NCBI GenBank assembly: GCA_965214605.1 | Contig: OZ243961.1 | Location: 553,917-617,916, forward strand | Length of the DNA stretch: 64,000 nt | Direction: 5' to 3' | From: an uncultured Candidatus Binatia bacterium | Lineage (GTDB): Bacteria > Desulfobacterota > Binatia > Bin18 | Shown here: positions 17,382-45,433 of the stretch, piece by piece | How positions within the stretch are numbered: position 1 is the stretch's first letter | Layout of the letters: each line of letters opens with the position of its first letter | Translations under genes and position numbers: made by a program | Notes under the pieces: model-generated | The model's input: only the letters and a program-made list of their open reading frames with translations | Databases searched by the model: none | Told to the model about the DNA's origin: nothing

Positions 17382-17430
17382 CTCCTTACGCTTGCCCCTA
17401 GGCCTTTCCGTTCAGCTTTCAACATTCTCT

Positions 17431-18891
17431 TCACGTCAGCTCCTTAGGCGCGTCTCCCCTCCCCCGCAGCACGTAGTGCTCTACAAAGCCGGGGGTCTTG
17501 CGCTCCAACTCCATATAGACCCTGATGCCGTGCTCTGTCCAGGCTCTCAGAAAGTCACAGTAGTGCAGGTTGGGGTGTAAGGCGTCGCCAAACTGGGTCA
17601 TGGCCTCATGATAACACCCGCCACCACACAGCCCACGCACCCAGCAGGTCTGACACACCGTTTTGTTGCCCAGGTGGGCCTTGTTCACAAAGGCATTCAG
17701 CCGGTCATAGGCCAGCCCGTCTCTCACGTTGCCGTGTTTATGCTCCTCGCTGCCGGGGAAACGATGGCACAGATAGACGTCGCCATTGCCGTCCACATCC
17801 AGCAGTCCCAGCCCAGCACCACACGGGAAAAACTTGTTAGTCCCGACATGGATATCGGTCAACAGGGTGCTCAGATTAGCGAAACCAGTATAGCGGCCCT
17901 GTATGGCTCGCTCGACGTATAGGCCGCTGAGCTGTCGAAAACCGGCCAACACCTCGTGCAAGTCTGCCGGCTCTAAACCGTAGTCCGTGCCATTGGTGGA
18001 CGTAACCGGAGAAAACCCGACCTCAAAAAATCCCAAGCCAGTCAGGTGTTCGTACGTCCGCATAATATCGATCGCGTCTTTCGTCACAGTGACCCGCGCC
18101 ACCACCGGGCGGGCAGTATAGCGCTCGAACAGACGCTCCAAGCGGGGCGCCAGCACCTGGTAGGAGCCTTTGCGTTGTCCCGTGGCGGTCACAAATGAGC
18201 GCCGTTTGTCGTGCAAATCCGGCGGGCCATCAATACTGATTGTGATACCAAAGCGATAATCCTGAAAAAAATCAATGACACCATCGGTCAGCAACGTGCC
18301 GTTGGTGGTAATAGAAAAATCGACCCGTTTGTCTTCGGCCCGGGCTTTTTGCTCGGCATAGGTCACGACTTGACGCATCAGTTTGAAGTTCAGTAGGGCC
18401 TCGCCACCAAAAAAAATCAGGTTGACATCCCGACTCTGGCCCGACTTTTGGAACAGAAAATCGACGCTAGCCTGAGCCGTCGACCAGTTCATCTGGACCG
18501 GTGTGGGGCCGTATTTGGCCTCGTCCGGCTCATAACAGTAGGTACAGTGCAGGTTACATTTATTGGCAACATTGATGACCACCGAGCTGACCGGAAACCG
18601 TTCAACATCTAGCTGGGGAATCGATAGTGGTGAGGTCGGCGGATCGGTCTCAAAGATGTCCAAGCGGATAAACTCCCGGACCGTTTCGGCAATCTCCTCA
18701 GCCGAAAACCGGTCGGCCAGCGCAGCGATCAGCTGCTCAAGGCTGCACGCCGGTCGGACCTGGCCGTAGTGCAGGACTGCCTCACACACCGCATCCATCT
18801 CAAACAGAGCCATGCTCTTGGCCGCAACCAAGACGTCCCCCGACTCCGTAGCGAGGGGATAGGCGTTTTCGGGATGGAATCGCAGCTGCAT
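17431..18891 (-). CDS. qhpD: radical SAM/SPASM maturase for QHNDH gamma subunit
   Basis: CNLHCTYCY radical-SAM CxxxCxxC motif; C-terminal SPASM cysteine clusters (CQTCWVRGLCGGGCYHE); start set at MQLRFHPENAY. Confidence 0.8.
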   Translation of the reverse strand: MQLRFHPENAYPLATESGDVLVAAKSMALFEMDAVCEAVLHYGQVRPACSLEQLIAALADRFSAEEIAETVREFIRLDIFETDPPTSPLSIPQLDVERFPVSSVVINVANKCNLHCTYCYEPDEAKYGPTPVQMNWSTAQASVDFLFQKSGQSRDVNLIFFGGEALLNFKLMRQVVTYAEQKARAEDKRVDFSITTNGTLLTDGVIDFFQDYRFGITISIDGPPDLHDKRRSFVTATGQRKGSYQVLAPRLERLFERYTARPVVARVTVTKDAIDIMRTYEHLTGLGFFEVGFSPVTSTNGTDYGLEPADLHEVLAGFRQLSGLYVERAIQGRYTGFANLSTLLTDIHVGTNKFFPCGAGLGLLDVDGNGDVYLCHRFPGSEEHKHGNVRDGLAYDRLNAFVNKAHLGNKTVCQTCWVRGLCGGGCYHEAMTQFGDALHPNLHYCDFLRAWTEHGIRVYMELERKTPGFVEHYVLRGRGDAPKELT

Positions 18892-18902
18892 ACTATCCGT
18901 CC

Positions 18903-20525
18903 TTACTCGATTGGCGGAAAGAGAAACCGGGGCGGCATGACGAGTAAATGCGCCCGTGCGCCAATTGAGCGTTTTGCGTTGGTGGGCTGATACCAGGCTT
19001 CGACCCACACATCGCCGACGTTACCCTCCAACATGCGCCGATCCGGGTTCGGACCGTCCAAGGCCGGGGTGAACAGCCCGGCTTGATCAAGCGTCCCAAC
19101 AAACTTGACATCGTCGTCATTATTGCGCTTGACGTATTCTTCCAGCTGCCAGGTGACCGGCGTGATGCGGCCTAACTTCACATCATCGGCCGTGCCTTTT
19201 TTGCCATCGGCCCCGTTGGTGTAGCCGTCCACCTCAAACTGCTGGAAAATCTTTGGCGCCCGCCCCCCACCCGGACGGGCAAAGCCATGTTCCGGGGAGA
19301 GCCGAATATAGTCGACCGTCTTATACACCGCCAGCCGGAGTTTGCTGCTCACTCCTCGAACATCGACATCCCTCCGGCCCGGTTCGGCCTGCGGGTCGAC
19401 TGTCAGCTCAAGCACCAGGGTATCATCGGCCTGCTGACTCACAGATTGGACCGACACTCCAGCGCCCAAAGACACATCTTCGGCCCGCAGCCCTGGGGGC
19501 AGCTTGATGCCGAACAGCTTCAGCTTTGGCGCGCTGCCAGCCTGTAAGGCGGTCGGGATGCTCGTCAGCAACCGGGCCGGTCCAAGACTCCGATACCACG
19601 TCTCGGTCAAGGCCAGATCACCATAGGCGGTTAGCAGGCGCCGCCCCTTGATCCGTGTCCCGTCTTCGCTGGCAAAAAATATTTCTCTGTGGCTCGTCTG
19701 CGCCTCGCCTTCGCCCAGCTGAGCGAGACCGCGCCACTGAAAGCCGGTGTAGACAATCGCTGTCGTTCGGCCCGACAGCGTCAGACCGTTCGAGAGTTCA
19801 TAGCGAAAGCTCCCGCTGTACCGATCATCCTCTCCGGCTGTCAGCGTTAAACGACCCACATAAGCCCCGCCCCCGCCAGCATCGTGACCGACCACTTTCC
19901 ACTCACCAGAATAGTCAGCCTTGGGTCGGGATTGCCAGTTGGTCCACGCGTCTGTGCGAAAAGGCAGAGCCTTGACCAAATAGGGCACGGCCTGCTGCTT
20001 GGCGTAATCGTACCAAAAGGTCCGGAGCAGCCCGGCCGAGACTGTTTCGTTTTCGATATTCGGCAGCAGGGCCAGTTTCGCGTCAATCAAGCGCTCCCAC
20101 TCTTGGGCGGTTCGGCCTTGGAGGGCGGTTCGGGCGTAGGAGTGGCACTGCACACAGCCGGCTTGCAGAGCCGCTGGCACGTCCTGGCTGGTAACAGTAT
20201 GATCACGGGCCAGAATAGGCTGAAAAGGCGCGACCTCGGCTGGCGCCAGGCCATACAGATCACTCAGGTATTTGACCAGGGTACGGGCTTCGCCAGCTTG
20301 GAGTTCGACCTGGTGAGTCAACACCATGCGCGAGATGGTCATCTCCCAGCCTTCCGGGGTTTTACGCTGGAACTCAATCGCGTCAAATTTACCGTCGGAT
20401 TGGCGTGGGACATGACAGCCCGAGCAGCGGTCTTCCAAAATCGTCCGTGCAGCGTCCGCTTGACCCCAAGCCTGCAAGGGGGCCAAGAGCAGACAGCACA
20501 TGGTAATGAGGAGCGGTATTTTCAT
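18903..20525 (-). CDS. qhpA: quinohemoprotein amine dehydrogenase alpha subunit (di-haem cytochrome c)
   Basis: signal peptide MKIPLLITMCCLLLAPLQAWG; two CxxCH haem motifs (CSGCHV, CVQCHS); ~540 aa. Confidence 0.75.
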   Translation of the reverse strand: MKIPLLITMCCLLLAPLQAWGQADAARTILEDRCSGCHVPRQSDGKFDAIEFQRKTPEGWEMTISRMVLTHQVELQAGEARTLVKYLSDLYGLAPAEVAPFQPILARDHTVTSQDVPAALQAGCVQCHSYARTALQGRTAQEWERLIDAKLALLPNIENETVSAGLLRTFWYDYAKQQAVPYLVKALPFRTDAWTNWQSRPKADYSGEWKVVGHDAGGGGAYVGRLTLTAGEDDRYSGSFRYELSNGLTLSGRTTAIVYTGFQWRGLAQLGEGEAQTSHREIFFASEDGTRIKGRRLLTAYGDLALTETWYRSLGPARLLTSIPTALQAGSAPKLKLFGIKLPPGLRAEDVSLGAGVSVQSVSQQADDTLVLELTVDPQAEPGRRDVDVRGVSSKLRLAVYKTVDYIRLSPEHGFARPGGGRAPKIFQQFEVDGYTNGADGKKGTADDVKLGRITPVTWQLEEYVKRNNDDDVKFVGTLDQAGLFTPALDGPNPDRRMLEGNVGDVWVEAWYQPTNAKRSIGARAHLLVMPPRFLFPPIE

Positions 20526-20634
20526 GTCGTGAGTCTCTTTGTCACAGTTCGGACTGGTAATCTTACACCCAGCGGCCGAGCTTTGAAAGACTCTAAGACA
20601 AGGGGGGAGCAACGCGTCTTGCCGCCGCTCCGGC

Positions 20635-21390
20635 TTGTTGCTAGGACAGAAGCGACACGACGAGAAGGCGATGGGCGCAGTGGATCACAAACCTGACCTC
20701 AGCCAGGCCACCGGAGCGGGTGTTCGCGTTGCCCTGATCGACAGTGGTATTAACGCTACACACTCCCATGTGGGGTCAGTTGCCGGTGGAGTGGGCTTTT
20801 GGATAGCCGACGACGGAACGGTCCAGGAAAACGATGCCTACCCCGACCAACTTGGCCATGGGACTGCTCTGGCCGGGATTGTACGGGCCAAAGCTCCTCA
20901 GGTTGAGCTGTACGCGGTCAAGATCTTCACCCAGCGGCTTGGCGCATCCATTAGGCTGCTCGAAGCCGGCCTAGGCTGGGCCATTACCCAAAAGATCAAG
21001 ATTATTAATCTGAGCCTAGGCACCAATAATCCGCAGCATCGGGAACGGCTGAGCTCGCTCCTTGGGCTGGCTCGGGCCGCAGGATCCATCCTGGTCGCTG
21101 CCTCTCCACCAGGGCGAACCGACGTGTTGCCGGCCGCGCTGCCAGGGGTAATTGGAGTGGCCGGAGACGAACACTGCGGCTGGAACGACTATCGTTACAC
21201 AAACGACGACCCGATTCCTTTTCGTGCCCACTCCCAGCCTCGTCCGCTGCCTGGCTTACCCCAGGAGCGCAACTTCCAGGGCCATAGCTTTGCCTCCGCC
21301 CATGTTTCGGCTAGGCTGGCTTTATTCGCTCAGACCCGTCCACAGCTCAGCCCGGAGGAGGCCCGCCAGTTCTTAACGCCCAAGGGCTGA
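20635..21390 (+). CDS. qhpE: small subtilisin-like serine protease (QhpE-type)
   Basis: S8 catalytic triad blocks ALIDSGI / GHGTALAG / GHSFASAHVS; ~250 aa. Confidence 0.7.
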   Translation: MLLGQKRHDEKAMGAVDHKPDLSQATGAGVRVALIDSGINATHSHVGSVAGGVGFWIADDGTVQENDAYPDQLGHGTALAGIVRAKAPQVELYAVKIFTQRLGASIRLLEAGLGWAITQKIKIINLSLGTNNPQHRERLSSLLGLARAAGSILVAASPPGRTDVLPAALPGVIGVAGDEHCGWNDYRYTNDDPIPFRAHSQPRPLPGLPQERNFQGHSFASAHVSARLALFAQTRPQLSPEEARQFLTPKG

Positions 21391-21407
21391 GCCCAGACCA
21401 CACCCGC

Positions 21408-23159
21408 TTAGCCATCCGCTTGCAGACCTTCCTCTCGCAGGGTTGTTCGGGTTTGACTCGGCAGGGCCGCCACGTCCGTATAGCGGCCTTTCCACCTCAC
21501 CCGTCCGCGGTCCAAAACGAGCACCGGCTCACCCCGGTGTAAGGAGGATAGACGATGGGTGATACAGATGAGGGTGCGGTCTGACATAAACGCCTCTAAG
21601 GTCTCCCGTACCTCGGCCTCAGCGCTTACATCAAGACCGGACAGAGCTTCGTCCAGAACGAGCACCGTTGGCCGTTTGAGTACCGCCCGGGCCAGACCGA
21701 TGCGCTGTCTTTGTCCGGCCGACAGTCGAGTTCCACGCTCACCAACCGCAGTCTGGTAGCCGTCGGGCAGGGAGACAATGAACTCGTGTAGGCCGAGCAT
21801 AGTCGCGGCATCAACCACGTCTTTCTCCGATGCCTCGGGAGTAGCGTAACGCAAATTGTCTAGCAGCGAAGCATTAAATAACACTGGCTCGTGGTCAACC
21901 ACCAGAATATGTTTGCGCAGCCAGGAGACCTCACACGCCGACAGCGGCTGGCCGTCGAGCAGGATGGTCCCAGCCTGCGGCTCGTATAAGCGCACCAGCA
22001 GGTCGGCCAGGGTCGATTTACCGCTCCCGCTCGGCCCCAGCAGGGTGAGGCGTCCACCGGCTGGGATATGAAAACTGACCTGGTCTAAGACCGGCTCAGA
22101 CAGATTGTAGGCAAACGAGACCCTTCGAAACTCGACCTCTCCCCGCAGCCCGGCGAGCCGCTTGCCGTGTCCAAGCCGCTCGACCTGGTCGACATCCAAG
22201 AACTCAAAAATCCGATCAATCGACACCCCGGTCCGTTCAATCCGTAGATATAAATCCATTAACATCTGGAGCGGACTAAAGGCCCGAGTTTGGTAGGCCG
22301 AGAAGGCGACCAGCCCGCCGATACTCAGCTGCCCATCAATCACCAGGTAGCCGCCATATAAGGTGGTCAACGCACCGCCGAGAAACGTGGTAGCGGTCGA
22401 GGCACTGCTGGCAGCATAGCCCAGCATTTCGTAGCGCGTCACCATACTCACAAATTGTCTACCTAGTGCGCCCAACCGCCCGAGCTGCACCTGCTCGACC
22501 CCGAACAGTTTGATAAAGCGTACCGCGGACAGCGATTCGATCAGAAAGGAAGAGAGCCGGGCGTTCAGCTCCCGCACTCGCCGCGTCTCATCGACTAGCC
22601 GGGGGCGAACCTTGTTGACGCCGTACAGCTGTAGCGGCACAACTAGCAGGGCGACCACACACAGCTTCCAGTTCAGCCACACCAAAAAGCCCATGGTTGC
22701 GATCAGGACAAACACGTTCGACACAAAAGTAAAGGCCGCGTCGGTCAGCACCGCCTGGACTTCGGCAATGTCGGTGTTGAGCCGCGACAGCAGGTCACCG
22801 ACCCGATTATGGGTATGAAAACGCAGCGACAGCGCCTGGAGATGGGCAAACACATGCTGACGTAGGGAGAACAGAATATGGGCGGTTATTTGGGTGTAAT
22901 AGTAGCGGTTACAAGCCCCGATCACATAGCCGGCGGCCGTCACCAAGACCATCACTCCGCTCAACACAAACAGCAAGTGCAGATTCTTGGCTAGCAGCAC
23001 GTCGTCAATCAGAATCTTGGTAAAAATTGGCCACAGCAGACCTAGAACAGTTCCAAACAGAGACAGTCCAAAGACCATAATGAGACGCCGGACAAACGGC
23101 GTGACAAAGGGCAGCAGACGGCGGAAGCGTGATAGGGAAGTGACGACGGACGGTCTCAT
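21408..23159 (-). CDS. qhpF: ABC transporter permease/ATP-binding fusion (exporter type, QhpF-like)
   Basis: 6-TM N-domain; Walker A GPSGSGKST, signature LSAGQRQRIGLARA, Walker B LVLDEALSGLD. Confidence 0.8.
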   Translation of the reverse strand: MRPSVVTSLSRFRRLLPFVTPFVRRLIMVFGLSLFGTVLGLLWPIFTKILIDDVLLAKNLHLLFVLSGVMVLVTAAGYVIGACNRYYYTQITAHILFSLRQHVFAHLQALSLRFHTHNRVGDLLSRLNTDIAEVQAVLTDAAFTFVSNVFVLIATMGFLVWLNWKLCVVALLVVPLQLYGVNKVRPRLVDETRRVRELNARLSSFLIESLSAVRFIKLFGVEQVQLGRLGALGRQFVSMVTRYEMLGYAASSASTATTFLGGALTTLYGGYLVIDGQLSIGGLVAFSAYQTRAFSPLQMLMDLYLRIERTGVSIDRIFEFLDVDQVERLGHGKRLAGLRGEVEFRRVSFAYNLSEPVLDQVSFHIPAGGRLTLLGPSGSGKSTLADLLVRLYEPQAGTILLDGQPLSACEVSWLRKHILVVDHEPVLFNASLLDNLRYATPEASEKDVVDAATMLGLHEFIVSLPDGYQTAVGERGTRLSAGQRQRIGLARAVLKRPTVLVLDEALSGLDVSAEAEVRETLEAFMSDRTLICITHRLSSLHRGEPVLVLDRGRVRWKGRYTDVAALPSQTRTTLREEGLQADG

Positions 23160-23289
23160 AGGCGATCCAGCGCTGGACTACGGGGCATATCCGCCCGTCC
23201 TCGCCTCTGGTAGGATCGGGGGGCGCTTGCCCTGTGGCTTTTCTTAGCCGATCGTAGGCCAGTCTACCAGGGGAAGAGACCTTAAATAG

Positions 23290-24834
23290 GTGCGAGCCAT
23301 GGCTCAAACGGAGGAGTTTGCTGGGCTGCCGACGCACAGCGATGTTATCGTGGCCGGCGGCGGACCGGCCGGAGCGACGATCGCCCGCCTGTTATCGGGC
23401 TATGGCCTGCGGGTTGTGGTGCTGGAAAGACACACGTTGCCCCGTTATCAGATCGGCGAATCGCTTACCCCGCGTATTCTGCCCATTTTTGACTTTCTCA
23501 ACATTCGTGCCGAGGTTGAGCGGGCCGGCTTTTTGCCCATTGCCGGCCACACGGTGTGCTGGGGGGAGGCTCAGCCACGCACGACGTATTACAGCCCGGA
23601 CCATAGCCGGCGCGGCTTGCAGGTCTGGCGAGCGGATTTTGATGTCCTGCTCCTAGATCAGGCCCGGCAGGCCGGGGTGCAGGTCTTTGAAGGCCAGGCG
23701 GTTGAGGCGGTCAGCCTGGCCCAGGACAGCGCCGCGGTGCAGGTGCGGACCGCGTCCCAACACCGCATCATGGCAGACTTCTTTATTGACGCGACCGGTC
23801 GCAGCGGGCTGCTGGCACGCCAAGGCTTACGCCGGCGTAATCGTCGCTTTCAGACCCTGGCCCTGACCGCCTATTGGCAAAACGTGGCCGAGCCCGCAGG
23901 CATTGATCGCGGCAACACGCTGATTGAAGCCTACGCCAACGGCATGGTGTGGTCTCTAGCCTTGCATACTGGGCTGAGGAACGTCACGCTGCTGGTCGAC
24001 TGGCGGGCGGGGTCTGACATCCGACGGACTAGCGTGGCCGATTGCTACTACGCGGAGCTTGGGAAAGCCCCCTACATCTCCGGCCTGTTGGCAGGGGCCC
24101 AGATTGCCACCCCACCCCGTGCCACCGACGCCACCCTGTACACCGCGACGCAGTTTGGTGACCCTCGCTTTTTACTCGTGGGAGATGCCGGGCTGTTTAT
24201 CGATCCGCTGTCCTCTGAAGGTGTCCACAAAGCCATGGCCTCAGCCATGACCGGGGCGGTGGTGGCCAACACTCTTCTTCGGCGACCGGCCATGCGGTCC
24301 CATGCGCTCAGCTTTTACGAACGGCGTCAGCGCCAAACCTATATCTCGCACTACCATCAGTCGCTCGCCTATTATCGGCAGGAACAACGCTGGCCCAAGT
24401 CTGCCTTTTGGCGCGCCCGAGCGAGCGAAACTCCCGCCCAGGAGTTCTCGTCCCCTCCACCTGTCTCCCGTCCCCCCGCCTCCCGCAAACTGTCGCACCT
24501 CCAATGGGCACCCGGCGTGTCTGTCCAGCAGCGACCAACAATCGCGGGGACCTATGTCAGCCTGCAGGACACGGTTATCGCCCCCCACTATCCCGATGGC
24601 GTCCGCTTTCTGGATCGGTTATGCCTGCCGACCGTACTCAAAATCATGGCCCAACAGCCCGCTATCGGCGATATTATCTCCGCCTATCTGCACCATCCGG
24701 ATGGACGGGGCTGTCCGCCCGAAGCGGTTCGACAGGGTTTAGCCCGCTGCTTTCAGGAAGGGATTGTGGTCGAGGCGGGGCACGCGGCGGTTCAGCGGGC
24801 TTCGGTCGATGCTTCGGCATTCACCAAACGATAA
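23290..24834 (+). CDS. qhpG: FAD-dependent monooxygenase (QhpG-type)
   Basis: N-terminal FAD dinucleotide motif IVAGGGPAGATIARLL...VLERH; GD motif LVGDAGLFIDPLSSEG. Confidence 0.7.
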   Translation: MRAMAQTEEFAGLPTHSDVIVAGGGPAGATIARLLSGYGLRVVVLERHTLPRYQIGESLTPRILPIFDFLNIRAEVERAGFLPIAGHTVCWGEAQPRTTYYSPDHSRRGLQVWRADFDVLLLDQARQAGVQVFEGQAVEAVSLAQDSAAVQVRTASQHRIMADFFIDATGRSGLLARQGLRRRNRRFQTLALTAYWQNVAEPAGIDRGNTLIEAYANGMVWSLALHTGLRNVTLLVDWRAGSDIRRTSVADCYYAELGKAPYISGLLAGAQIATPPRATDATLYTATQFGDPRFLLVGDAGLFIDPLSSEGVHKAMASAMTGAVVANTLLRRPAMRSHALSFYERRQRQTYISHYHQSLAYYRQEQRWPKSAFWRARASETPAQEFSSPPPVSRPPASRKLSHLQWAPGVSVQQRPTIAGTYVSLQDTVIAPHYPDGVRFLDRLCLPTVLKIMAQQPAIGDIISAYLHHPDGRGCPPEAVRQGLARCFQEGIVVEAGHAAVQRASVDASAFTKR

Positions 24835-29085: not shown

Positions 29086-29187
29086 ATGGACAGGAGTCAA
29101 GGACAGGGACCGGCCTGGATTGTGTTTTTAGTCTGGATGCTCATTCCGCTCTTGGTTTTCTTTTTGATCGTTACGTTTACCGGCTAA
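29086..29187 (+). CDS. small hydrophobic peptide (33 aa)
   Basis: MDRSQGQGPAWIVFLVWMLIPLLVFFLIVTFTG; strong Shine-Dalgarno GAGGAGGG 5 nt upstream; below the ORF-track size cutoff. Confidence 0.3.
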   Translation: MDRSQGQGPAWIVFLVWMLIPLLVFFLIVTFTG

Positions 29188-29206
29188 GCCGGTTTCAGTA
29201 AGGAAA

Positions 29207-30238
29207 GTGGCTATGAAAACAGGCCGGTTCGTCGCTGGAGCCGTGCTCGGTTGGTTGCTGGGCTTCCCCTTCCTGGTGTTTTGCCAACAGACCGAGCCGG
29301 TCGCAAAAGCCAACGCTGTTCTGGCCACAATCGAAGGCTATTCCATCACCCAATCCGATATTGAGGAACGTACCAAGAGCGACATGCTCCGCCTCAATAA
29401 TCAGATTTACGCGGTCAAGAAACGGGCCGTTAACGCCCTGATTGATGAGCGACTGATGGAGATCGAAGCCGGCAAACATGGCCTCTCGCTCCAGGAGCTG
29501 TTAGAGCGCGAGGTCACAGACAAGGCGAAGGCGGTCACTGAAGAAGAAATCGAGGCATTCTACAAGGCCAACAAAACTCGTCTGGGCAATAAGCCACTGG
29601 ACGAGCTGAGAGACCGTATTGCCCGGCAGTTGCAGGGGGCCGCCCAGCGCGGGCGTCGACAGGCGTTCGTTCAGGAGTTGCGTAAAGCGGCCGCCATCAC
29701 CATGAACCTCAAGCCGCCAATTGTTGAGGTGGCAATTGATGGTGCCCCGACCCTGGGTCCGGCCGAGGCTCCGGTCACCGTGGTCGAGTTTGGCGACTAC
29801 GAATGCCCATACTGCGCCCGAGTTCAGCCCACCCTTCATAAAATCCGAGAGACCTATAAAGGTCAGGTCAAGTTCGTGTTTAAAGACTTCCCGCTATCCA
29901 TTCACCCCCAAGCCCAAAAAGCGGCCGAAGCAGCCCGGTGTGCGGGACAGCAGGACAAGTACTGGGACTATCACGACGTGTTGTTCCGTAATACCAAGGC
30001 CCTGCAAGTTGACAAGCTCAAACAATACGCGGCCGACCTGCAGCTCGACACGACGCGCTTCGACACCTGTTTGGACAGTGGCCAACAGGCGGACGCAGTC
30101 CGCAGGGATCTCGCCCAGGGCTCACAGCTTGGGGTCAGCGGAACCCCCACCTTTTTTATCAACGGCCGCTTTTTTTCCGGGGCACGACAGTTATCGGCCT
30201 TTCAGACAGTGATTGATGAGGTGCTAGCCGCAGACTGA
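29207..30238 (+). CDS. periplasmic thiol:disulfide oxidoreductase, DsbA-family thioredoxin domain with N-terminal helical (SurA-N-like) region
   Basis: signal peptide; VVEFGDYECPYCARV CxxC active site. Confidence 0.75.
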   Translation: MAMKTGRFVAGAVLGWLLGFPFLVFCQQTEPVAKANAVLATIEGYSITQSDIEERTKSDMLRLNNQIYAVKKRAVNALIDERLMEIEAGKHGLSLQELLEREVTDKAKAVTEEEIEAFYKANKTRLGNKPLDELRDRIARQLQGAAQRGRRQAFVQELRKAAAITMNLKPPIVEVAIDGAPTLGPAEAPVTVVEFGDYECPYCARVQPTLHKIRETYKGQVKFVFKDFPLSIHPQAQKAAEAARCAGQQDKYWDYHDVLFRNTKALQVDKLKQYAADLQLDTTRFDTCLDSGQQADAVRRDLAQGSQLGVSGTPTFFINGRFFSGARQLSAFQTVIDEVLAAD

Positions 30239-30261
30239 GTGAGGGGCGGGGAAGCGGCTCA

Positions 30262-31326
30262 TCAGGTTTGCAGCGCAGGCATGACCTGCTCGACAAACCG
30301 CCGCATGCTAGCCAAAACCTGGTTGTGGGGCACCAAGCCGCCTGGGTTAAACCAGCAGATGAGCTGATCCATCTTACACTGCCGGTGGACGGCGCGGATC
30401 TTTTCGACGCACTGCTCGGGCGGACCGTACAGCGCCATAGTATCGTCGATCAGCTCCCAGGTCACGGACTTCTGTCTCTGTCGGACTTCCTGCAAATAGT
30501 CGTAGGATGCCGCCCGACTTTGACCCCGCTCCCCAAGCTCTGCCTGGGTCGTCACCGTCCGAAAATAGTGCATGATACTCGGCTCAACCTGTTGGCGTAC
30601 CTGCAGCTGGCTATCGGCAACATACACGGGAAACAGTACTGCGCTGTCGGCCCGCTTATCCCGATGGCCGGCAGCCCGAAACGCCTGGTGGTAGCCGCCT
30701 AGATGCTGGGCGAGTTTGGGCATGGGATTAATCGGAGAGGCAACAAAGACGGGATAGCCGCGCTGGCCGGCAAAGGCGGCTGTTTCTGGGCTATTGGCCG
30801 CAATCCGCAGCGGCGGGTGCGGTTTTTGGAGCGGCTTGGGCACGACCGAGGTAGAGGGAATCTGGAAATAGCGGCCCTCAAATGCACAGGTGTCCTGGCT
30901 CCAGGCTTGCTCGATAATGGTCAGGGCTTCTTCAAAACGCTCTCGGCTCTCGTCCCTTGACACTCCCAGCCCCTGAAAATGAATGGCGATTGTGCCGCGC
31001 CCCACCCCCAATTCAAGCCGTCCGTTGCTGAGGAGATCAACGGTCGCCGCGTCCTCGGCAGTCCGTAGCGGGTGCTGCAGTGACAGCAGTGCCACGGCCA
31101 ACCCCAAGCGAATGCGCCGCGTCCGCTCGGCCAGGGCCGCCGCAACGATTAATGGCGAGGGCATAATCGAAAACGGTCGGTTAAAGTGCAACTCAGCCAG
31201 CCAGGCCGTATCGAAACCTAGTTCATCCGCGTATTGGATCTGTTCGAGTGTCTCCTGGTATCGGCTGACCTCGTTTTGACCAGGAGCGCAGGGCAGCTGG
31301 TAAAAAAGACCGAATTTCATGGGCAA
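30262..31326 (-). CDS. LLM-class flavin-dependent oxidoreductase (paralog A)
   Basis: MKFGLFYQLP...ETLEQIQYADELGFDTAWLAELHF; ~70% identical to the 47419..48474 product. Confidence 0.75.
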   Translation of the reverse strand: MPMKFGLFYQLPCAPGQNEVSRYQETLEQIQYADELGFDTAWLAELHFNRPFSIMPSPLIVAAALAERTRRIRLGLAVALLSLQHPLRTAEDAATVDLLSNGRLELGVGRGTIAIHFQGLGVSRDESRERFEEALTIIEQAWSQDTCAFEGRYFQIPSTSVVPKPLQKPHPPLRIAANSPETAAFAGQRGYPVFVASPINPMPKLAQHLGGYHQAFRAAGHRDKRADSAVLFPVYVADSQLQVRQQVEPSIMHYFRTVTTQAELGERGQSRAASYDYLQEVRQRQKSVTWELIDDTMALYGPPEQCVEKIRAVHRQCKMDQLICWFNPGGLVPHNQVLASMRRFVEQVMPALQT

Positions 31327-31404
31327 GTCCTTCCGGGCGATGCACTGCGTTTCGGCGTACCCCTCTTGGCCACTCCAAAACGACTATGGTAATTACCTCA
31401 TACT

Positions 31405-32610
31405 ATGTCAGGAAAGAAAAACAAGGCGGGACGCCGCAAGAGTGCACAAGCGGCGATCAGCCCAGCAGCCCTGCCCTTAGCAACCGGTCCGCTGATGCTG
31501 ACACGTATCCTAGCCCTTCTGGGCCTGGGGGTCAGTGCCTATCTGTCTGTGGTGCATTATCAGGCCGAGGCCGAGGATTTAGTGACCTCCCATTTTTGCC
31601 AGGCTGGGTCGGTCATCGACTGTACCTCGGTGCTCAACAGCTCATATGCCACCTTATTTGATCTCCCGGTGGCCCTCTGGGCTATTGGAGCCTACATTAT
31701 CACGCTCGTCCTGACTTTTACCCCCCAGGCGCTCGCCCTGCTTTTTGTGTGTTCATGGCTGTTTGTGTTTGGCCTGTACATGGCCGCTGTCTCGTTCTTC
31801 GCCCTCCAGTCGGTGTGTCTGTTCTGCACGGCACTGTATCTGATCAATATCGGGCTGTTTGTCAGCGCCATCATCTTGGTGCGCTCCTCTGCCGACTTCG
31901 AGCTGAGTCGGTTTGCCTTTGGCCTGCTCGGCTGCGTCATTGTAACCGCTGGGATTGGCTTGTGGCAAAACCAACAAGCTCACCTCACGCCGCTCGATTT
32001 TAGGGCGCCGAGCGCCGAACGCATGGATAGGAGTTTTGTGCAGTTTTACAACGAACAACGCGAGGTGGCGGTCCAAAACCAAGAGCGCTATGTCAAGGGC
32101 GCTCAGGACGCGTCGCTGCGCATTACCGAGTTTGTCGATTTCCGGTGCCCCAGCTGCGCCGTGGCCCATGACTACCTGACCTATCTGCGTGCGGCCAACA
32201 AGGGCGAGGTCCGCGTGGTCTTTCACCACTACCCGCTCGACCAGGCCTGTAACCCTATTGCTCAACAAGTCCATCCCTCGTCTTGCGCTGCAGCCATTGC
32301 CTCGGAGTGCGCCGGCGACCAAGACGCGTTTTGGGCCTATGCCGATCGCCTGTTCGCCAACCAAAAACGCTTCAGTCGCGCGGAGCTAGTCGATCACGCC
32401 GAGGCGCTGGATCTGGACCGTGAGCGGTTCGAGTCCTGCCTCGGAGACACTCGTATGGCAGATCGGGTGCGCCGAGATGTTGAAGAGGGACAGCGGCTTG
32501 GAATCAGCGCCACGCCGACCCTCATCATCAACGGGCGCGTGATCGAGGGACTGCCGCCGCCGAAAAAGCTGGCGACCCTGGTAACGCTGCAGCAGCAGCA
32601 GAATCGGTAA
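31405..32610 (+). CDS. vitamin K epoxide reductase (VKOR) domain fused to thioredoxin/DsbA-like domain
   Basis: VKOR 4-TM core with CxxC-loop Cys (HFCQAGSVIDCTS) and C-terminal EFVDFRCPSCAV thioredoxin CxxC. Confidence 0.75.
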   Translation: MSGKKNKAGRRKSAQAAISPAALPLATGPLMLTRILALLGLGVSAYLSVVHYQAEAEDLVTSHFCQAGSVIDCTSVLNSSYATLFDLPVALWAIGAYIITLVLTFTPQALALLFVCSWLFVFGLYMAAVSFFALQSVCLFCTALYLINIGLFVSAIILVRSSADFELSRFAFGLLGCVIVTAGIGLWQNQQAHLTPLDFRAPSAERMDRSFVQFYNEQREVAVQNQERYVKGAQDASLRITEFVDFRCPSCAVAHDYLTYLRAANKGEVRVVFHHYPLDQACNPIAQQVHPSSCAAAIASECAGDQDAFWAYADRLFANQKRFSRAELVDHAEALDLDRERFESCLGDTRMADRVRRDVEEGQRLGISATPTLIINGRVIEGLPPPKKLATLVTLQQQQNR

Positions 32611-32675
32611 AGGCAGACCTGAGTCCCTGAGTTCAGCCGCAGAGCTTATGCACTGCCCATCAGACTCTGACTCGT

Positions 32676-33350
32676 TTAGCCAACGATAATATGCTCCTTA
32701 GTAATAATCACCGGCAGCTTGCCGGCCGCGATAAAATTCGGCTCGTCAGCCCGGGTTCGCTCGTATTCGGGGGTCGTGGCCGAGAGGCGCATCGCTTGAG
32801 TGCTGTCAAACCAAGTGAGGGCCACGCCGTCGTAGATCGGCGTTTTCCCGCTCTTATAAATTGACGGCCGGGTATGACTCTGAACGTAGCGTCTAATCAC
32901 CGGAATGGCAGCCCCAAGCGGACCATGAATCTCGCGCCAGTGGGTCTGAAAGTCCTCAATCGGCATCCCCGGTTTATGGTTCACAAACTCGACGTTTTTG
33001 ACCCCATCGGCCGGAACCGGGCCGTCTTTGATGAGGTGCTCTTCGGTAATAATCGAGCCTTGGCTGTCTCCGTCCATGAAGTTCGCCTCGTCGCTCTGGA
33101 CTGCGGCAAGCTCTGATGTACCGACCTGGCGACGCATGACCTCGGTATTGTCGAACCACAGCTCGGCCATGCCGTCGTACACGGGTTCTCTCTCACGACG
33201 GTAGCCGGACAGAATGGTGTGGGACTGAACGTAACGACGAATGCCCGGCAGTTTGACCACGATATCGGCGTGGGTGGTTCGCCAGTAGGCCTGAAAGTCC
33301 TCGACCGGCATACCGGCTTTCCGTTTAAAAAAAGCGATCAGTTTGATCAT
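32676..33350 (-). CDS. tandem EthD-domain (dimeric alpha/beta barrel) protein (paralog A)
   Basis: two EthD-like halves (IAFFKRKAGMPVEDFQAYWRTTH... and VNHKPGMPIEDFQTHWREIHG...); start set at MIKLIAFF. Confidence 0.6.
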   Translation of the reverse strand: MIKLIAFFKRKAGMPVEDFQAYWRTTHADIVVKLPGIRRYVQSHTILSGYRREREPVYDGMAELWFDNTEVMRRQVGTSELAAVQSDEANFMDGDSQGSIITEEHLIKDGPVPADGVKNVEFVNHKPGMPIEDFQTHWREIHGPLGAAIPVIRRYVQSHTRPSIYKSGKTPIYDGVALTWFDSTQAMRLSATTPEYERTRADEPNFIAAGKLPVIITKEHIIVG

Positions 33351-33433
33351 ACGTCTTTTCCTCCTACGTCTAGCTATGGCATGCTGTTGGCCTGGGTCAA
33401 GGCACGCGGCGATCCCAAACAGAAGGATACGGC

Positions 33434-34624
33434 ATGGATTTTCAATATTCGTCCGAGCAAGAAGCGTTTCGGAGCGAACTGCGCGGCTGGCTAGAGGCAC
33501 ACCTCCCCAAAGAGCTGTGCGTTGAGGACGCTATGGATGAGCGGGTCGCGCCCGATCGCCCGACGTTTGAGAAACGCCGGGCCTGGCAGCGTACGATGTA
33601 TGAAGCCGGTTGGGTCGGTATTCCGTGGCCCAAAGAGTACGGAGGACGGGGGGCTGGGCTGATGGAGCAAATTGTGTTTGAGGAGGAGTATACGCGGGCC
33701 CAGGCCCCAATCCTGCCCGGTTTCTCGGGGATTGCGCTATGCGGTCCGACCCTTATGCAGTGGGGGACCGAGGCACAGAAAGAGAAGTTTTTAGCCCGTA
33801 TCCTGCGCGGTGACGACATCTGGTGTCAGGGATACTCTGAACCCGGGGCTGGTTCCGACCTGGCCAGTCTCCAGACCCGGGCGGTTGAGGACGGTGATGA
33901 GTTTGTGGTCAACGGTCAGAAGGTCTGGACCTCGGGCGCCCAGTATGCAGATTGGATCTTTATGCTGGTCCGAACCAACCCCGACGCGCCCAAACATCGG
34001 GGCATCAGCTATCTGCTGGTGAATATGAAAACCCCAGGAGTGACGGTTCGGCCCCTGGTGCTGATCAACGGTCATGCCCATTTTAACGAGATCTTTTTTG
34101 AAGACGTGCGGGTGCCCAAAGAAAACCTGGTCGGTCCGCTGAACGAGGGCTGGAAGGTGACCATCACCACCCTGATGTTTGAGCGCGGTATTGCCGGCGG
34201 CGGAAACCAGGGTGACCAGATCAACCGTTTGGCTCAGCTGTCCCGCCGCGTTGACCTCAACGGCCGGCCAGCCTGGGAGCAATCCTGGGTCCGTGACAAA
34301 CTGGTCCAGCTCCACATTGAAAATGAGAGCCTCAAATACACCCGTCTGCGCAGTCTGACCAAACAGCTCAAGGGTCAGCCACCCGGCCCCGAAGGCTCAA
34401 TGCTCAAGCTATGCAGCTCTGAGCTGGGCGTCAGAATCGCCGAGTTTGCCAGTGAATTATTGGGCCACAACGCGATTGTCGATCTGCCGTCCAAAGCCGT
34501 ACCCGATGCACCGCGTTGGGTGAATCGGGTGCTCAGCGCCCGCCAATATACAATTTCGGGCGGGACCAGCGAGATTCAGCGAAATATTATGGGAGAACGC
34601 GTCTTGGGTCTGCCCAAAGGCTAG
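33434..34624 (+). CDS. acyl-CoA dehydrogenase
   Basis: 396 aa; ACAD N/M/C domain pattern (YGGRGAG..., CQGYSEPGAGSDLASLQT). Confidence 0.8.
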   Translation: MDFQYSSEQEAFRSELRGWLEAHLPKELCVEDAMDERVAPDRPTFEKRRAWQRTMYEAGWVGIPWPKEYGGRGAGLMEQIVFEEEYTRAQAPILPGFSGIALCGPTLMQWGTEAQKEKFLARILRGDDIWCQGYSEPGAGSDLASLQTRAVEDGDEFVVNGQKVWTSGAQYADWIFMLVRTNPDAPKHRGISYLLVNMKTPGVTVRPLVLINGHAHFNEIFFEDVRVPKENLVGPLNEGWKVTITTLMFERGIAGGGNQGDQINRLAQLSRRVDLNGRPAWEQSWVRDKLVQLHIENESLKYTRLRSLTKQLKGQPPGPEGSMLKLCSSELGVRIAEFASELLGHNAIVDLPSKAVPDAPRWVNRVLSARQYTISGGTSEIQRNIMGERVLGLPKG

Positions 34625-35163
34625 CCACGTTTGCGCACCTGCCACTCGCTGCGGAGTACGGCCATCAGCAGCGTGTTATAGTAGCGGCCCTCAGCACGGC
34701 GATTTTCGCGCAGCAGCCCCTCGCGGCGGAAACCCGCCTTTTGATAGGCCCGGATACCGCGCGTGTTACGCTCGTCCACATGCAGCCAAACTCGGTTCAG
34801 GTCCAACTGACCAAAAGCATAGTCAAGCATCAGACCGCTCACCTCTACGCCGTAGCCCTTGCCCATCTCGCCGATGAGCAGGCCAAAGCTAGCTTTGCGG
34901 TTGTCCAAATCGAGTTGATGTAACTCAGTGATGCCGATTAGGCCATCGGTATCGCGGCGCACGACGCCGAGCAGCAGGTCGTGCCCAGTGCGGTATAGCC
35001 GCTCAATACCGTCGGCCACAGCCCTGATATCAACCGCTGGGAAAAAGTCGCCCAGGTGTCGGGTCAGATCCCGGCTCTGCAGCCAGGGCACGATTTGCTC
35101 AGCATCACTGCGCTCCAAAGGACGCAGATACACGCGCCCACCCGTTAGCACGGTTTCCTGCAT
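34621..35163 (-). CDS. GNAT-family N-acetyltransferase (RimJ/RimL-like)
   Basis: acetyl-CoA binding block; YLRPLERSDAEQI N-terminus; start set at internal Met. Confidence 0.65.
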   Translation of the reverse strand: MQETVLTGGRVYLRPLERSDAEQIVPWLQSRDLTRHLGDFFPAVDIRAVADGIERLYRTGHDLLLGVVRRDTDGLIGITELHQLDLDNRKASFGLLIGEMGKGYGVEVSGLMLDYAFGQLDLNRVWLHVDERNTRGIRAYQKAGFRREGLLRENRRAEGRYYNTLLMAVLRSEWQVRKRG

Positions 35164-35289
35164 CCATCCTCCATCAACGCCATTGGTGATCTCTTCCCAA
35201 CGTGGTGATCGACTATCAGCGATACTTTTTTGAACCGTCCACATCCTAGCACCGCACCGCTCTTGACGCGAAACCTGAGACCTGCCAGC

Positions 35290-38764: not shown

Positions 38765-39935
38765 AACGGTTTTCGTTTGGCTCGCGGCGGCACGGCAGTT
38801 GCTCTGGTTTACGGAGGGCGGGATTGCGTGCTCCCGGGATGGCGTCACGCGGGGATTGCATCCCCCTCTCATCTCCAGCTAGTATCCGCAACAGGGGGGC
38901 ATCGCCCATGCCCAAGAGGTTTGAGGACACGACGAGATCCATGATCCGCCCCGTGCAGACGTCAAAATCAATGAACCTGAACTTGGTGCGCCGGCCTGTT
39001 CCGGCAACTCAACGCGCAGCAACCGCTCAGCGTTTCGCACGGCAAACAGCGCAGCAACCTGCGCGCTAGGACGGAGAGAACGACCATGAGCGCTACACTG
39101 AGCCCCGCAGAACGCGCCCGCTTTCTCCAGGCGCTGAAGGAGGACTCCGACTTCCGCGAGGCGGTACGCCAGCACCTCCTGAGCGACGCACTGCTGGAAC
39201 TGCCGGAAAAATTCGCCCAGTTCGCCGCCTACGTCAACGAATTTATCGCCAACACCAACGAATTTATCGCCAACACCAACAAATTTATCGCCGACCAAAA
39301 GGCATTCAATACCCGCACCGAAGAACGCCTGGACCGGATTGACGACCGTCTGGACCGTGTTGAAGGCCGTCTGGACCGTGTTGAAGGCCGTCTGGACCGT
39401 GTTGAAGGCCGTCTGGACCGTGTTGAAGGCCGTCTGGACCGGATTGACAACCATCTGGACCGGATTGACAACCGGCTGGACCGGATTGACGACAGCATCG
39501 GCATCCTGAAAGGCAACGCAGCGCGACGTCTGCTCAGAGATCACCTCGAAGGCGTCCTAGAACTCGTAGGCGTAGAGGATTTCGTAAGAATCCTGTCCAG
39601 CAGCGACCTGATTCGCCTGATGCGCACCTCAGGCATGGCTCGCGAGATACCCTACGGAGAACGGCGGAGTTTCTATGCCGCCGATCTGGTCATCGAAGCC
39701 GCCGACGCAACGGGTGCCCCCTGTTATATCACGGCCGAGGGGTCCTTCACCGCGGATAAGCGGGACAGCAGCCGGGCGATTCGGAATGCCGCATTCCTGA
39801 CCCGGCTTACCGGCCACCCGGCCTCCCCTGTCGTTGCCAGCATGAGGAACGACTACGAAGTGCAAGAGCTGGTCAATCAGGAAACCATCCGCTGGTTCCA
39901 GCTGGACGAGCGGGACCTCGAAGCGGATTAGGACG
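38765..39935. repeat. tandem duplication unit 1 (~1.2 kb: 320-bp leader plus repeat-protein gene)
   Basis: near-identical to 39995..41095 apart from internal 21-bp repeat copy number. Confidence 0.8.
39086..39931 (+). CDS. hypothetical protein with variable heptad (21-bp) tandem repeats and conserved C-terminal domain, copy 1
   Basis: 281 aa; (FIANTNE/K)x2 ... (RLDRVEG)x4 (RLDRIDN)x2 coiled-coil repeats; C-terminal ~150 aa identical to copy 2. Confidence 0.6.
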   Translation: MSATLSPAERARFLQALKEDSDFREAVRQHLLSDALLELPEKFAQFAAYVNEFIANTNEFIANTNKFIADQKAFNTRTEERLDRIDDRLDRVEGRLDRVEGRLDRVEGRLDRVEGRLDRIDNHLDRIDNRLDRIDDSIGILKGNAARRLLRDHLEGVLELVGVEDFVRILSSSDLIRLMRTSGMAREIPYGERRSFYAADLVIEAADATGAPCYITAEGSFTADKRDSSRAIRNAAFLTRLTGHPASPVVASMRNDYEVQELVNQETIRWFQLDERDLEAD

Positions 39936-39994: not shown

Positions 39995-41095
39995 GCTTTG
40001 GCCAGCGGTTTTCGTTTGGCTCGCGGCGGCACGGCAGTTGCTCTGGTTTACGGAGGGCGGGATTGCGTGCTCCCGGGATGGCGTCACGCGGGGATTGCAT
40101 CCCCCTCTCATCTCCAGCTAGTATCCGCAACAGGGGGGCATCGCCCATGCCCAAGAGGTTTGAGGACACGACGAGATCCATGATCCGCCCCGTGCAGACG
40201 TCAAAATCAATGAACCTGAACTTGGTGCGCCGGCCTGTTCCGGCAACTCAACGCGCAGCAACCGCTCAGCGTTTCGCACGGCAAACAGCGCAGCAACCTG
40301 CGCGCTAGGACGGAGAGAACGACCATGAGCGCTACACTGAGCCCCGCAGAACGCGCCCGCTTTCTCCAGGCGCTGAAGGAGGACTCCGACTTCCGCGAGG
40401 CGGTACGCCAGCACCTCCTGAGCGACGCACTGCTGGAACTGCCGGAAAAATTCGCCCAGTTCGCCGCCTACGTCAACGAATTTATCGCCAACACCAACGA
40501 ATTTATCGCCAACACCAACAAATTTATCGCCAACACCAACAAATTTATCGCCAACACCAACAAATTTATCGCCAACACCAACGAATTTATCGCCGACCAA
40601 AAGGTCTTCAATGCCCGCACCGAAGAACGCCTAGACCGGATTGACGACAACATCGGCATCCTGAAAGGCAACGCAGCGCGACGTCTGCTCAGAGATCACC
40701 TCGAAGGCGTCCTAGAACTCGTAGGCGTAGAGGATTTCGTAAGAATCCTGTCCAGCAGCGACCTGATTCGCCTGATGCGCACCTCAGGCATGGCTCGCGA
40801 GATACCCTACGGAGAACGGCGGAGTTTCTATGCCGCCGATCTGGTCATCGAAGCCGCCGACGCAACGGGTGCCCCCTGTTATATCACGGCCGAGGGGTCC
40901 TTCACCGCGGATAAGCGGGACAGCAGCCGGGCGATTCGGAATGCCGCATTCCTGACCCGGCTTACCGGCCACCCGGCCTCCCCTGTCGTTGCCAGCATGA
41001 GGAACGACTACGAAGTGCAAGAGCTGGTCAATCAGGAAACCATCCGCTGGTTCCAGCTGGACGAGCGGGACCTCGAAGCGGATTAGGACGTGATA
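39995..41095. repeat. tandem duplication unit 2
   Basis: see unit 1. Confidence 0.8.
40325..41086 (+). CDS. hypothetical protein with variable heptad tandem repeats, copy 2
   Basis: 253 aa; (FIANTNE/K)x5 and no RLDRVEG block; otherwise identical to copy 1. Confidence 0.6.
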   Translation: MSATLSPAERARFLQALKEDSDFREAVRQHLLSDALLELPEKFAQFAAYVNEFIANTNEFIANTNKFIANTNKFIANTNKFIANTNEFIADQKVFNARTEERLDRIDDNIGILKGNAARRLLRDHLEGVLELVGVEDFVRILSSSDLIRLMRTSGMAREIPYGERRSFYAADLVIEAADATGAPCYITAEGSFTADKRDSSRAIRNAAFLTRLTGHPASPVVASMRNDYEVQELVNQETIRWFQLDERDLEAD

Positions 41096-44721: not shown

Positions 44722-45433
44722 ATGGCGGCCTATGCAATTGGCGATGCCCAGGGCTGCTTTGCCGGTCCGATGGCGCTGTCAGAGGCGATTTGTTTCAATC
44801 GGAGGCGCCATACTCTGTGGTTTACGGGCGACCTAGTCAATCGGAGGCCTGACTCGCTTGGGATCGTGCGCTTTGTCCCCGACCCCGTCCCACGGACGGG
44901 ATGGAGCCTGAGGGACCATGGCCTCCATCTGCTAGCCGTTGCCCACGGTCAGCGCAAACTGCATCCTAAGGATACGCTGAGGGATATCCTCGAAACGCCC
45001 GACCGTGATATACTGCTTGACTGGCTCCGACACAGTCCTCTGCTACACCACGACGAGGTTACCCCTGATGACCACCGATCATAGTTCACTCTGCGAAAAT
45101 CGGCGCGTCAGTCTAATCCACGCTGGTCTGCCACCGCGTTGGCCCCTAGCCGGGGTCCAACGCCACGCCCGAGCGGTCGAAACCGGTCTACAGGGACCCG
45201 ACTTGGCCGCTTGCCTGGTCGGGATCACCCACAAAACGTGCCGGACAACGCCTAGCGCTGTCCCCCCCTCGCCTTCCCCTACCACCACCTGCTTGACCCG
45301 AAGCTGCTCCTATAGTGCCGAGGGGGTGCTTGACGTAGTGTACAAGGGTCCGTTGGGGACGCAGCCCTGCCTGCCGTGGTTTGCCGCGCCATACCAGGCC
45401 CACGCCGGCCAAGAGATTATCTTTGGCCACTAG
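44722..45433 (+). pseudogene. apaH: bis(5'-nucleosyl)-tetraphosphatase (symmetrical) ApaH, frameshifted and C-terminally truncated
   Basis: N-terminal 120 aa (AIGDAQGC...LWFTGDLVNRRPDSL...LLDWLRHSPLLHHDE) in one frame, C-terminal ApaH blocks (LIHAGLPPRW..., LPWFAAP...EIIFGH) in another (45005..45433), ending prematurely. Confidence 0.6.

Follow-up and report, generated by a model that had tools for sequence, protein, structure and literature searches.

We analysed a window of 64,000 nt from the genome of an uncultured Candidatus Binatia bacterium (all coordinates are window positions). It contains two genes encoding luciferase-like monooxygenases (LLM-A and LLM-B), two genes encoding proteins with tandem EthD domains (EthD2_A and EthD2_B) and a set of genes for disulfide formation, which encode a 33-residue peptide (pep33), a DsbA-like protein (SurA_N-DsbA) and a VKOR-DsbA fusion. 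An earlier note on this DNA had read them as two repeated LLM plus EthD modules with a conserved two-component function, one of them embedded in disulfide machinery. Its open reading frames (ORFs) were correctly placed, and its domain calls (LLM, tandem EthD, VKOR fusion, DsbA) held by Pfam. The interpretation that we consider likely is a different one, namely that each gene is an uncharacterised member of a known family, that they are neighbours through lineage-level synteny, and that they form neither a conserved LLM plus EthD two-component system nor a tie between an LLM and disulfide formation. Three separate things would thus adjoin: a disulfide-oxidation unit, two paralogous cytoplasmic LLMs of the FMN type, and two distantly related tandem-EthD proteins.

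The strands alternate across the six genes from 29207 to 35244 (Table 1). LLM-A is convergent with the DsbA gene (23-bp gap) and divergent from the VKOR gene (84 bp from the ATG at 31320), which stands on the opposite strand between LLM-A and EthD2_A. EthD2_A is itself convergent with the VKOR gene and divergent from its adjacent neighbour, an acyl-CoA dehydrogenase gene. Because of the alternating strands, no common transcript is possible for LLM-A and EthD2_A. The B genes (cyclase, LLM-B and EthD2_B) are found about 12 kb beyond the A region, all on the plus strand. The cyclase gene ends 32 bp upstream of LLM-B, and LLM-B is separated by 92 bp from EthD2_B, with which it forms the sole same-strand adjacent LLM/EthD pair of the window and the only one that can be co-transcribed. 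The statement that both LLMs have an EthD protein as their neighbour is therefore right for B and wrong for A, where the VKOR gene intervenes. Promoter and terminator scans of the relevant gaps yielded nothing above chance level.

We also considered that an LLM plus EthD pair had been duplicated as a block, and rejected this on account of the unequal divergence of the two components. LLM-A and LLM-B share 66% identity over 351 aa, as against 38% for EthD2_A and EthD2_B, which belong to distant deep clades of their family. The LLMs are indeed paralogous, with a lower identity than the ~70% previously given, and the two supposed modules are not copies of one block. An exact copy of LLM-B, with identical neighbours, was found on a second contig, whereas LLM-A gave no match in the contig index. 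EthD2_B and the VKOR-DsbA fusion have counterparts of 100% identity on a contig of 4.31 Mb.

The check proposed in the earlier note, a survey of gene neighbourhoods, was run from both sides. On the LLM side, one genome per species was scanned with an alignment of the LLM family, which gave 80 loci with at most 10 kb of flank; the flanks were searched with the window proteins and with an EthD hidden Markov model (HMM) made from 48 domain copies, and the results were mapped on the LLM tree. Genes in the surveyed loci (designated L followed by a number) were called by a GC3-based caller. The genomic loci came nearly all from Binatia metagenome-assembled genomes, a few of which are obviously mislabelled. 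An EthD gene was adjacent to the LLM gene in only three of the 80 loci (L025, L026 and L055; LLM-B 89–91% identical), 50–70 bp downstream. There was no EthD within 10 kb in the sister clade (72–73% identity; L023, L027 and L029, the contig of L022 being too short), nor in about 50 members at ≤62% identity. In the LLM-A clade (67–88%), the EthD2 gene was 2.3–9 kb off, beyond the VKOR gene, or missing, and L001–L003, L008 and L017 contain LLM-A and no EthD2_A. Other LLM subclades keep neighbours of their own (amidohydrolase, CMD-like, glyoxalase-like).

On the EthD side we used 80 metagenome loci and additional targeted look-ups, lineages being defined as clusters at 70% identity, of which 23 were observable. 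The tandem-EthD family is large, with 466 matches at E ≤ 1e-10 among the candidates scored. An LLM gene was adjacent in 3 of the 23 lineages, each time from a different LLM subfamily. Counted by locus, LLMs were the commonest neighbours of tandem-EthD genes (15 of 80). Twelve of these 15 loci represent one syntenic clade with a divergent LLM of another subfamily, and they count as a single event because their further neighbours are also common to them; outside this clade, the adjacency comes down to two singletons. In L171, the nearest outgroup of EthD2_B (69%), an orthologue of the ferredoxin-cyclase gene (69% identity; 3183–4895) lies directly upstream of the EthD2 gene and there is no LLM. 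The EthD2 gene of L172 (60% relative of EthD2_B) is divergent from a flavin reductase gene and has no adjacent LLM, that of L174 (59%) has an unrelated LLM two genes away, and that of L086, another relative of EthD2_B, has no adjacent LLM. In L166, the EthD2_A orthologue is divergent from an LLM with 32% identity to the A/B family, followed by the acyl-CoA dehydrogenase gene. As L171 has an EthD2 gene without LLM and L001 an LLM-A gene without EthD, the pairing is separable in both directions. It is at best a weak recurrent association; most of the survey speaks against a conserved two-component function.

Some of the survey data weigh against explaining the pairs by synteny. At least five mutually distant LLM subfamilies (LLM-B, the 'X' clade, L121, L154 and L166) have a member no more than one gene away from a tandem-EthD gene, a sixth (L174) has one at a distance of two genes, and the EthD2 gene of L172 stands beside a flavin reductase gene. 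Nonadjacent LLMs were rare in the metagenome flanks (one lineage in about 129 kb), and LLM adjacency exceeds a naive chance expectation. This would be understandable if tandem-EthD proteins were facultative accessory partners of two-component LLM monooxygenases, B being a working pair and A a loosened one. The 92-bp gap of the B pair contains no terminator-like site, the pair is kept in L025, L026 and L055, and LLM adjacencies arose independently in the clade of 12 divergent pairs and in L121, L154 and L166. Furthermore, EthD2_B resembles in its fold (see below) cofactor-free oxygenases and isomerases that work after another oxygenase, and EthD, for which a role as electron carrier has been proposed, is essential in vitro to the EthAB P450 system (PMC7934444). 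We nevertheless find such a role unlikely. The pairing is missing in 20 of the 23 tandem-EthD lineages and in all but the closest relatives within the LLM family, an LLM is lacking in the nearest outgroup of EthD2_B, the 12 divergent pairs are one event, and adenylate cyclases are equally found beside tandem-EthD genes, in two independent clades. The enrichment is moreover marginal (p between about 0.005 and 0.1 according to the background assumed, our own estimate from lineage counts), because these genomes are rich in LLM genes. The window has three, the third (6113–7186, minus strand; PF00296, 136 bits) belonging to another subfamily and having no EthD gene nearby, and there are several per 20 kb in many of the surveyed loci; 'multiple ladA homologues' have been described in Binatota (PMC8262859). 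We consider it quite improbable that tandem-EthD proteins form a widespread facultative accessory class for two-component flavin monooxygenases, recruited repeatedly near unrelated LLMs and flavin reductases. If they did, the still unexplained EthD requirement of the P450 EthB would extend to flavoenzymes. Our literature search turned up no paper on EthD in combination with luciferase-like monooxygenases.

Synteny is also our preferred explanation for the position of LLM-A among the disulfide genes. The earlier note had called a disulfide system beside a flavoenzyme unusual; the arrangement is real and conserved in this group of Binatia, while the functional tie that it might suggest did not stand. 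In nearly all loci of the LLM-A clade with visible flanks, the LLM gene is flanked by a divergent VKOR gene and a convergent DsbA gene. The wider block (ApbA, LysM/SLT, acyl-CoA dehydrogenase, GNAT) is equally conserved, and the LLM-A/VKOR adjacency is therefore what general synteny predicts. In L169, pep32, DsbA and VKOR-DsbA follow each other directly on a single strand, with a gap of 43 bp and no LLM between them. In L166 (4597–4842) and L167 (4641–4889), both on the minus strand, the slot of LLM-A is filled, in antisense, by a gene for an 81–82-aa Nitr_red_assoc protein (PF09655). Since the disulfide unit also occurs without LLM, nothing points to a functional tie between them, and we conclude that pep33, SurA_N-DsbA and VKOR-DsbA are a functional unit in which LLM-A is a passenger, dispensable for the unit.

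On the strength of L166, L167 and L169, we first favoured a recent insertion of LLM-A into a Dsb operon. The tree of the VKOR fusions (neighbour-joining, no support values) makes loss or replacement at least as likely. Because L166, L167 and L169 are nested among LLM-bearing lineages in this tree, the LLM-A/VKOR adjacency is probably old and was lost or replaced in these three. This is a difficulty for the passenger explanation: the divergent adjacency spans VKOR identities down to ~40% and brackets the LLM-less lineages, as expected of an old arrangement. One could imagine that LLM-A is tied to the disulfide machinery, for instance through co-regulation with VKOR from the shared 84-bp intergenic region, with the quinone pool or a redox-related metabolite as its target. 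The retention of VKOR and DsbA flanks in about 20 LLM-A-clade loci from many species would agree with this, as would L170, where the neighbourhood of LLM-A and VKOR persists although DsbA is missing. We hold such a tie to be very improbable. No hydrophobic segment or signal peptide was found in LLM-A, which is for this reason predicted to be cytoplasmic and in a different compartment from DsbA, the active sites of DsbA and VKOR being predicted to be periplasmic. The disulfide unit is intact in the three LLM-less loci, L018 and L021, which belong to the LLM-A clade, have neither VKOR nor DsbA in their visible flank (in L024 the downstream side alone is visible), and the surrounding block is conserved to the same extent. 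Among the known chemistry of LLMs, none links to VKOR.

The disulfide unit, which we keep regarding as independent of LLM-A, starts with pep33, a hydrophobic single-pass peptide of 33 aa (MDRSQGQGPAWIVFLVWMLIPLLVFFLIVTFTG). Its stop codon is 19 bp ahead of the DsbA ORF, and a Shine-Dalgarno sequence, GGAGG, is present 6 nt upstream. Orthologues with conserved frame and Shine-Dalgarno sequence were found in L001–L009, L014, L019, L166, L167 and L169. Nine loci that were aligned and three that were found later all showed the frame, the GGAGG and the pattern MDxSQGQGPAW-hydrophobic-TFTG. Sequence differences between orthologues were distributed over the codon positions in the ratio 100 (third) : 46 (first) : 9 (second). 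No Pfam family matched pep33. It is a real conserved gene, and the earlier note was right to single out this tiny peptide.

SurA_N-DsbA matched PF13462 (123.7 bits) and PF01323 (86.3 bits), and weakly SurA_N_3. With a CPYC motif at residue 200 and a single N-terminal hydrophobic segment, it is predicted to be an exported or membrane-anchored thiol oxidase of the DsbA type. Its match to NF041057 (Rcas_1661 family thioredoxin-like (seleno)lipoprotein) reached 125 bits, below the cut-off of 190, and concerned the thioredoxin part only. The orthologues alternate between Cys and an in-frame TGA (selenocysteine) at the first position of the CxxC motif. The TGA (…DYQ*PYCARV…) was found in L004, L009, L010, L011, L015, L017, L020, L166 and L167, and Cys in the protein of the window and in eight other loci. 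Such alternation is typical of a selenoprotein family. Gene callers break the TGA-bearing orthologues into two.

The VKOR-DsbA fusion matched PF07884 (72.5 bits; cut-off 27.5), PF13462 (94.6 bits) and PF01323 (62.2 bits), and has six hydrophobic segments. Its cysteines comprise the loop pair Cys65/Cys73, C138LFC141, and a CPSC motif at residue 248 in the DsbA/BdbD-like domain. In an alignment with the solved structure 6WV9, a vertebrate VKOR-like protein, the four cysteines of the VKOR part coincide with its loop pair and its CVIC motif, whose cysteines we take to be numbered C43, C51, C132 and C135, as in vertebrate VKOR. Relatives in the PDB are Synechococcus VKOR-Trx (3KP9/4NV6), BdbD and actinobacterial DsbA.

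The unit resembles Synechococcus VKOR-Trx and the VKOR-DsbA pairs of Actinobacteria in having a VKOR domain with paired cysteines in a loop, a CxxC motif within the last catalytic helix, several transmembrane helices, a C-terminal periplasmic thioredoxin-fold domain with a CxxC, and a separate DsbA gene alongside. It differs in that the domain fused to VKOR is of the DsbA/BdbD type, has a helical insert and is not a plain thioredoxin, that the partner DsbA has a SurA_N-like domain and is from a family with selenocysteine or Cys, that a conserved 33-aa peptide gene leads the unit and that, in this lineage, an antisense LLM gene lies between the Dsb genes. By analogy with these families, DsbA would oxidise exported proteins, and the VKOR domain would re-oxidise DsbA, or its own fused DsbA domain, via the loop cysteines and CLFC, and would hand electrons to a membrane quinone.

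Table 1. Genes of the A region and of the B cassette, by window position.
Feature	Coordinates	Strand	Basis or remark
pep33	29086-29187	+	ORF, translation
SurA_N-DsbA	29207-30238	+	likelier start = ATG at 29213
LLM-A	30262-31320 (ATG at 31320; longer call to 31326)	-	PF00296
VKOR-DsbA fusion	31405-32610	+	PF07884 + DsbA-like domain
EthD2_A	32676-33350	-	two PF07110 stretches
Acyl-CoA dehydrogenase (PimC-like)	33434-34624	+	PF02771/PF02770/PF00441
GNAT	34621-35244	-	window gene order
Membrane 2Fe-2S ferredoxin/adenylate cyclase	45608-47386	+	PF00111, PF00211
LLM-B	47419-48474	+	PF00296
EthD2_B	48567-49250	+	two PF07110 stretches

Both LLMs matched PF00296 over nearly the whole profile (LLM-A, 241.2 bits, positions 1–309 of 314; LLM-B, 229.6 bits, positions 1–307; cut-off 27.9). 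The earlier note had proposed a check for F420 or FMN signatures, and those found were of the FMN type. Among solved relatives, RslO1 (7BIP) and LuxA ranked best (134–141 bits), the range for RslO1 and LuxA-type chains being 105–141 bits, and F420 enzymes (Mer, FGD, F420 hydroxymycolate dehydrogenase) scored at most 63 bits, less than half of the best. RslO1 is an FMN-dependent luciferase-like monooxygenase (PMC8093152). In a HMMER alignment to 1BRL_A, equivalents of LuxA His45, Arg107, Arg125, Ser176 and Thr179 were present, and His44 was replaced by Leu. The five residues, which we take from the LuxA-FMN structure to be FMN phosphate-binding or catalytic, were invariant in the A/B clade and in the clades at 53–62% identity, and nearly so (9–10 of 10–11) in the more distant clades (75 family members in all). 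No NCBIfam LLM subfamily, FMN or F420, reached its curated cut-off. The best was TIGR04020 (MupA/Atu3671), with 146 and 158 bits for a cut-off of 244. The F420 family TIGR03619 gave 130 bits (cut-off 167), and others, including TIGR03560, were further below. The two proteins are thus predicted to be of the FMN type (LuxA/RslO1-like), and an F420-dependent LLM was ruled out by the PDB and NCBIfam rankings together with the conserved FMN-phosphate residues.

The likeness to LuxA (1BRL/3FGC) and RslO1 includes a full-length colinear alignment (residues 1–349 versus 1–352 of LuxA) at 110–141 bits, the TIM-barrel LLM domain PF00296 and the five conserved residues. The differences are the low identity (~25–30%, our own reading of the HMMER alignments), the Leu in place of His44, and the lack of a LuxB-like partner, of lux or polyketide genes and of a flavin reductase near LLM-A and LLM-B. 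The Pfam scan of the window covered the called genes, a few short or doubtful ORFs (including 17052–17381) lying outside it; no flavin reductase (PF01613 or similar) was found among the genes scanned. As two-component enzymes, LLM-A and LLM-B would have to be supplied with reduced FMN by a reductase whose gene lies elsewhere. Two other candidates were dismissed. One was an alkane monooxygenase of the LadA type, for which there was just a weak partial match to TIGR03860; the other was a link to redox machinery through a metal site of four LLM cysteines, since Cys315 is not conserved beyond the A/B clade.

The EthD proteins both contained two stretches matching PF07110 (115.9 bits for EthD2_A and 146.7 bits for EthD2_B; cut-off 22) and matched TIGR02118 (112.7 and 134.2 bits; cut-off 30.5). 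The presence of two domains per protein was also indicated by our custom HMM, and each half retains W, H, YxQxH, DG and DE..F motifs. An AlphaFold2 model of EthD2_B (pLDDT 95.3, pTM 0.90) shows the order beta-alpha-beta-beta-alpha-alpha-beta in each half, i.e. a fused pair of ferredoxin-like units. Foldseek matched it to bacterial chalcone isomerase (3ZPH/4C9S), the anthrone-oxidase-like 5F9P, PenE (9KDP) and the putative monooxygenases 3F44 and 3MCS, the best single-domain match being CTB10. These tandem ferredoxin-like barrel enzymes also consist of two fused halves (~220–260 aa), with TM-scores of 0.55–0.69 and Foldseek E-values of 1e-9 to 1e-6; they differ in belonging to other Pfam families (ABM etc.) with 10–16% identity, the resemblance being one of fold alone. 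By sequence, BH0200 (2FTR) was the only solved structure detectable for the EthD protein.

The analogy with EthD as an accessory to a P450, made in the earlier note, could not be sustained. The window proteins share with EthD of Rhodococcus ethRABCD and the TIGR02118 family the PF07110 and TIGR02118 domains, above threshold, and the ferredoxin-like alpha+beta barrel (CTB10 at 21–25% identity). In contrast to the homodimer of a ~10-kDa protein, two domains are fused in one chain of ~225 aa. Unlike in ethRABCD, the surroundings lack a P450, a ferredoxin reductase and an AraC regulator, and the EthD2 genes stand beside a gene for an LLM, for an acyl-CoA dehydrogenase or for a ferredoxin-cyclase. 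The P450 heme-binding motif was absent from all window ORFs of at least 80 aa, and neither P450 nor ferredoxin reductase was found among the Pfam matches of the window genes. The sole 2Fe-2S domain found is that of the cyclase protein.

In this protein, four hydrophobic segments at the N-terminus are combined with a 2Fe-2S ferredoxin domain and an adenylate/guanylate cyclase domain of class III, a composition that suggests a redox-sensing cyclase. Its gene is upstream of LLM-B in L026 and L055, and absent in L025. In the tandem-EthD clade of L098, L103, L104 and L109, the EthD gene is convergent with a different membrane adenylate cyclase of ~750 aa. EthD2_A orthologues adjoin the acyl-CoA dehydrogenase gene in L004, L006, L007, L009, L010, L016, L020 and L167; the dehydrogenase of the window scored 300 bits, below the cut-off, with TIGR03204. 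EthD2_A is paired with the acyl-CoA dehydrogenase gene, and EthD2_B, in its nearest outgroup, with the cyclase gene. Any cooperation between LLM-B and EthD2_B would be recent and lineage-specific. The LLM would then oxygenate some substrate, probably derived from lipid, and the cofactor-free barrel EthD2_B would act on its product or bind it.

Both regions show gene turnover. In L001–L003 and L008 (LLM-A 88% identical), a DUF445 gene replaces EthD2_A and the acyl-CoA dehydrogenase gene. The whole cassette of cyclase, LLM-B and EthD2_B is missing there as well, and a neighbouring enoyl-CoA hydratase gene is truncated. In the window, short ORFs resembling fragments of genes are present on either side of the B cassette (44722–45433 and 49290–49795). 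The stretch 44722–45084 gave a weak metallophosphatase match, and 49290–49795 appears, as judged by eye from the translations, to hold pieces of a sodium:solute symporter, an intact gene for which is found at the corresponding place in L171.

Other features of the window were also noted. A CRISPR-like array (58958–59640) has a repeat unit of 25 nt, CCAGTTCTGAAGGGGAATTAGAGG, present ~15 times. Its spacers, at ~19 nt, are unusually short, and about nine in a row have the same sequence (TTCTCAACAGCATGAGGAG). It adjoins a Cas1 gene and the gene of a 1414-aa protein whose sole Pfam match is a C-terminal Cas12f1-like TNB domain; the genes beside the array are at 53490–57734 (plus strand) and 57842–58897 (minus strand). 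The stretch 15934–24834 resembles a maturation cluster for quinohemoprotein amine dehydrogenase, with a beta-propeller protein, a radical SAM enzyme, an S8 peptidase, an ABC exporter and an FAD monooxygenase of the Trp-halogenase type. At the equivalent position, L001 and L004 have a gene annotated as the gamma-subunit of this dehydrogenase. Two tandem paralogues on the plus strand (39086–39931 and 40325–41086) share 80% identity overall, agree fully at both ends, and differ solely in a central coiled-coil tract (RLDRVEG versus FIANTN repeats). Finally, 8517–10649 (plus strand) encodes a 710-aa protein in which a membrane domain of the VTT/DedA type is fused to a pyridine-nucleotide-disulfide oxidoreductase, and a separate VTT-domain gene is present just upstream of pep32 in L167 and L169.

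A conserved LLM plus EthD system would have supplied a first general partner for the poorly understood EthD family and a new accessory component for LLMs, and would aid the annotation of many LLM genes in hydrocarbon- or lipid-degrading uncultured bacteria. In LLM-rich genomes such as those of Binatia, repeated adjacency of an LLM to another gene within one window is no evidence of a module. On the positive side, the LLMs of this locus could be placed as FMN type rather than F420, and a disulfide unit of Binatia could be defined, consisting of a 33-aa peptide, a SurA_N-DsbA with selenocysteine or Cys, and a VKOR-DsbA fusion.

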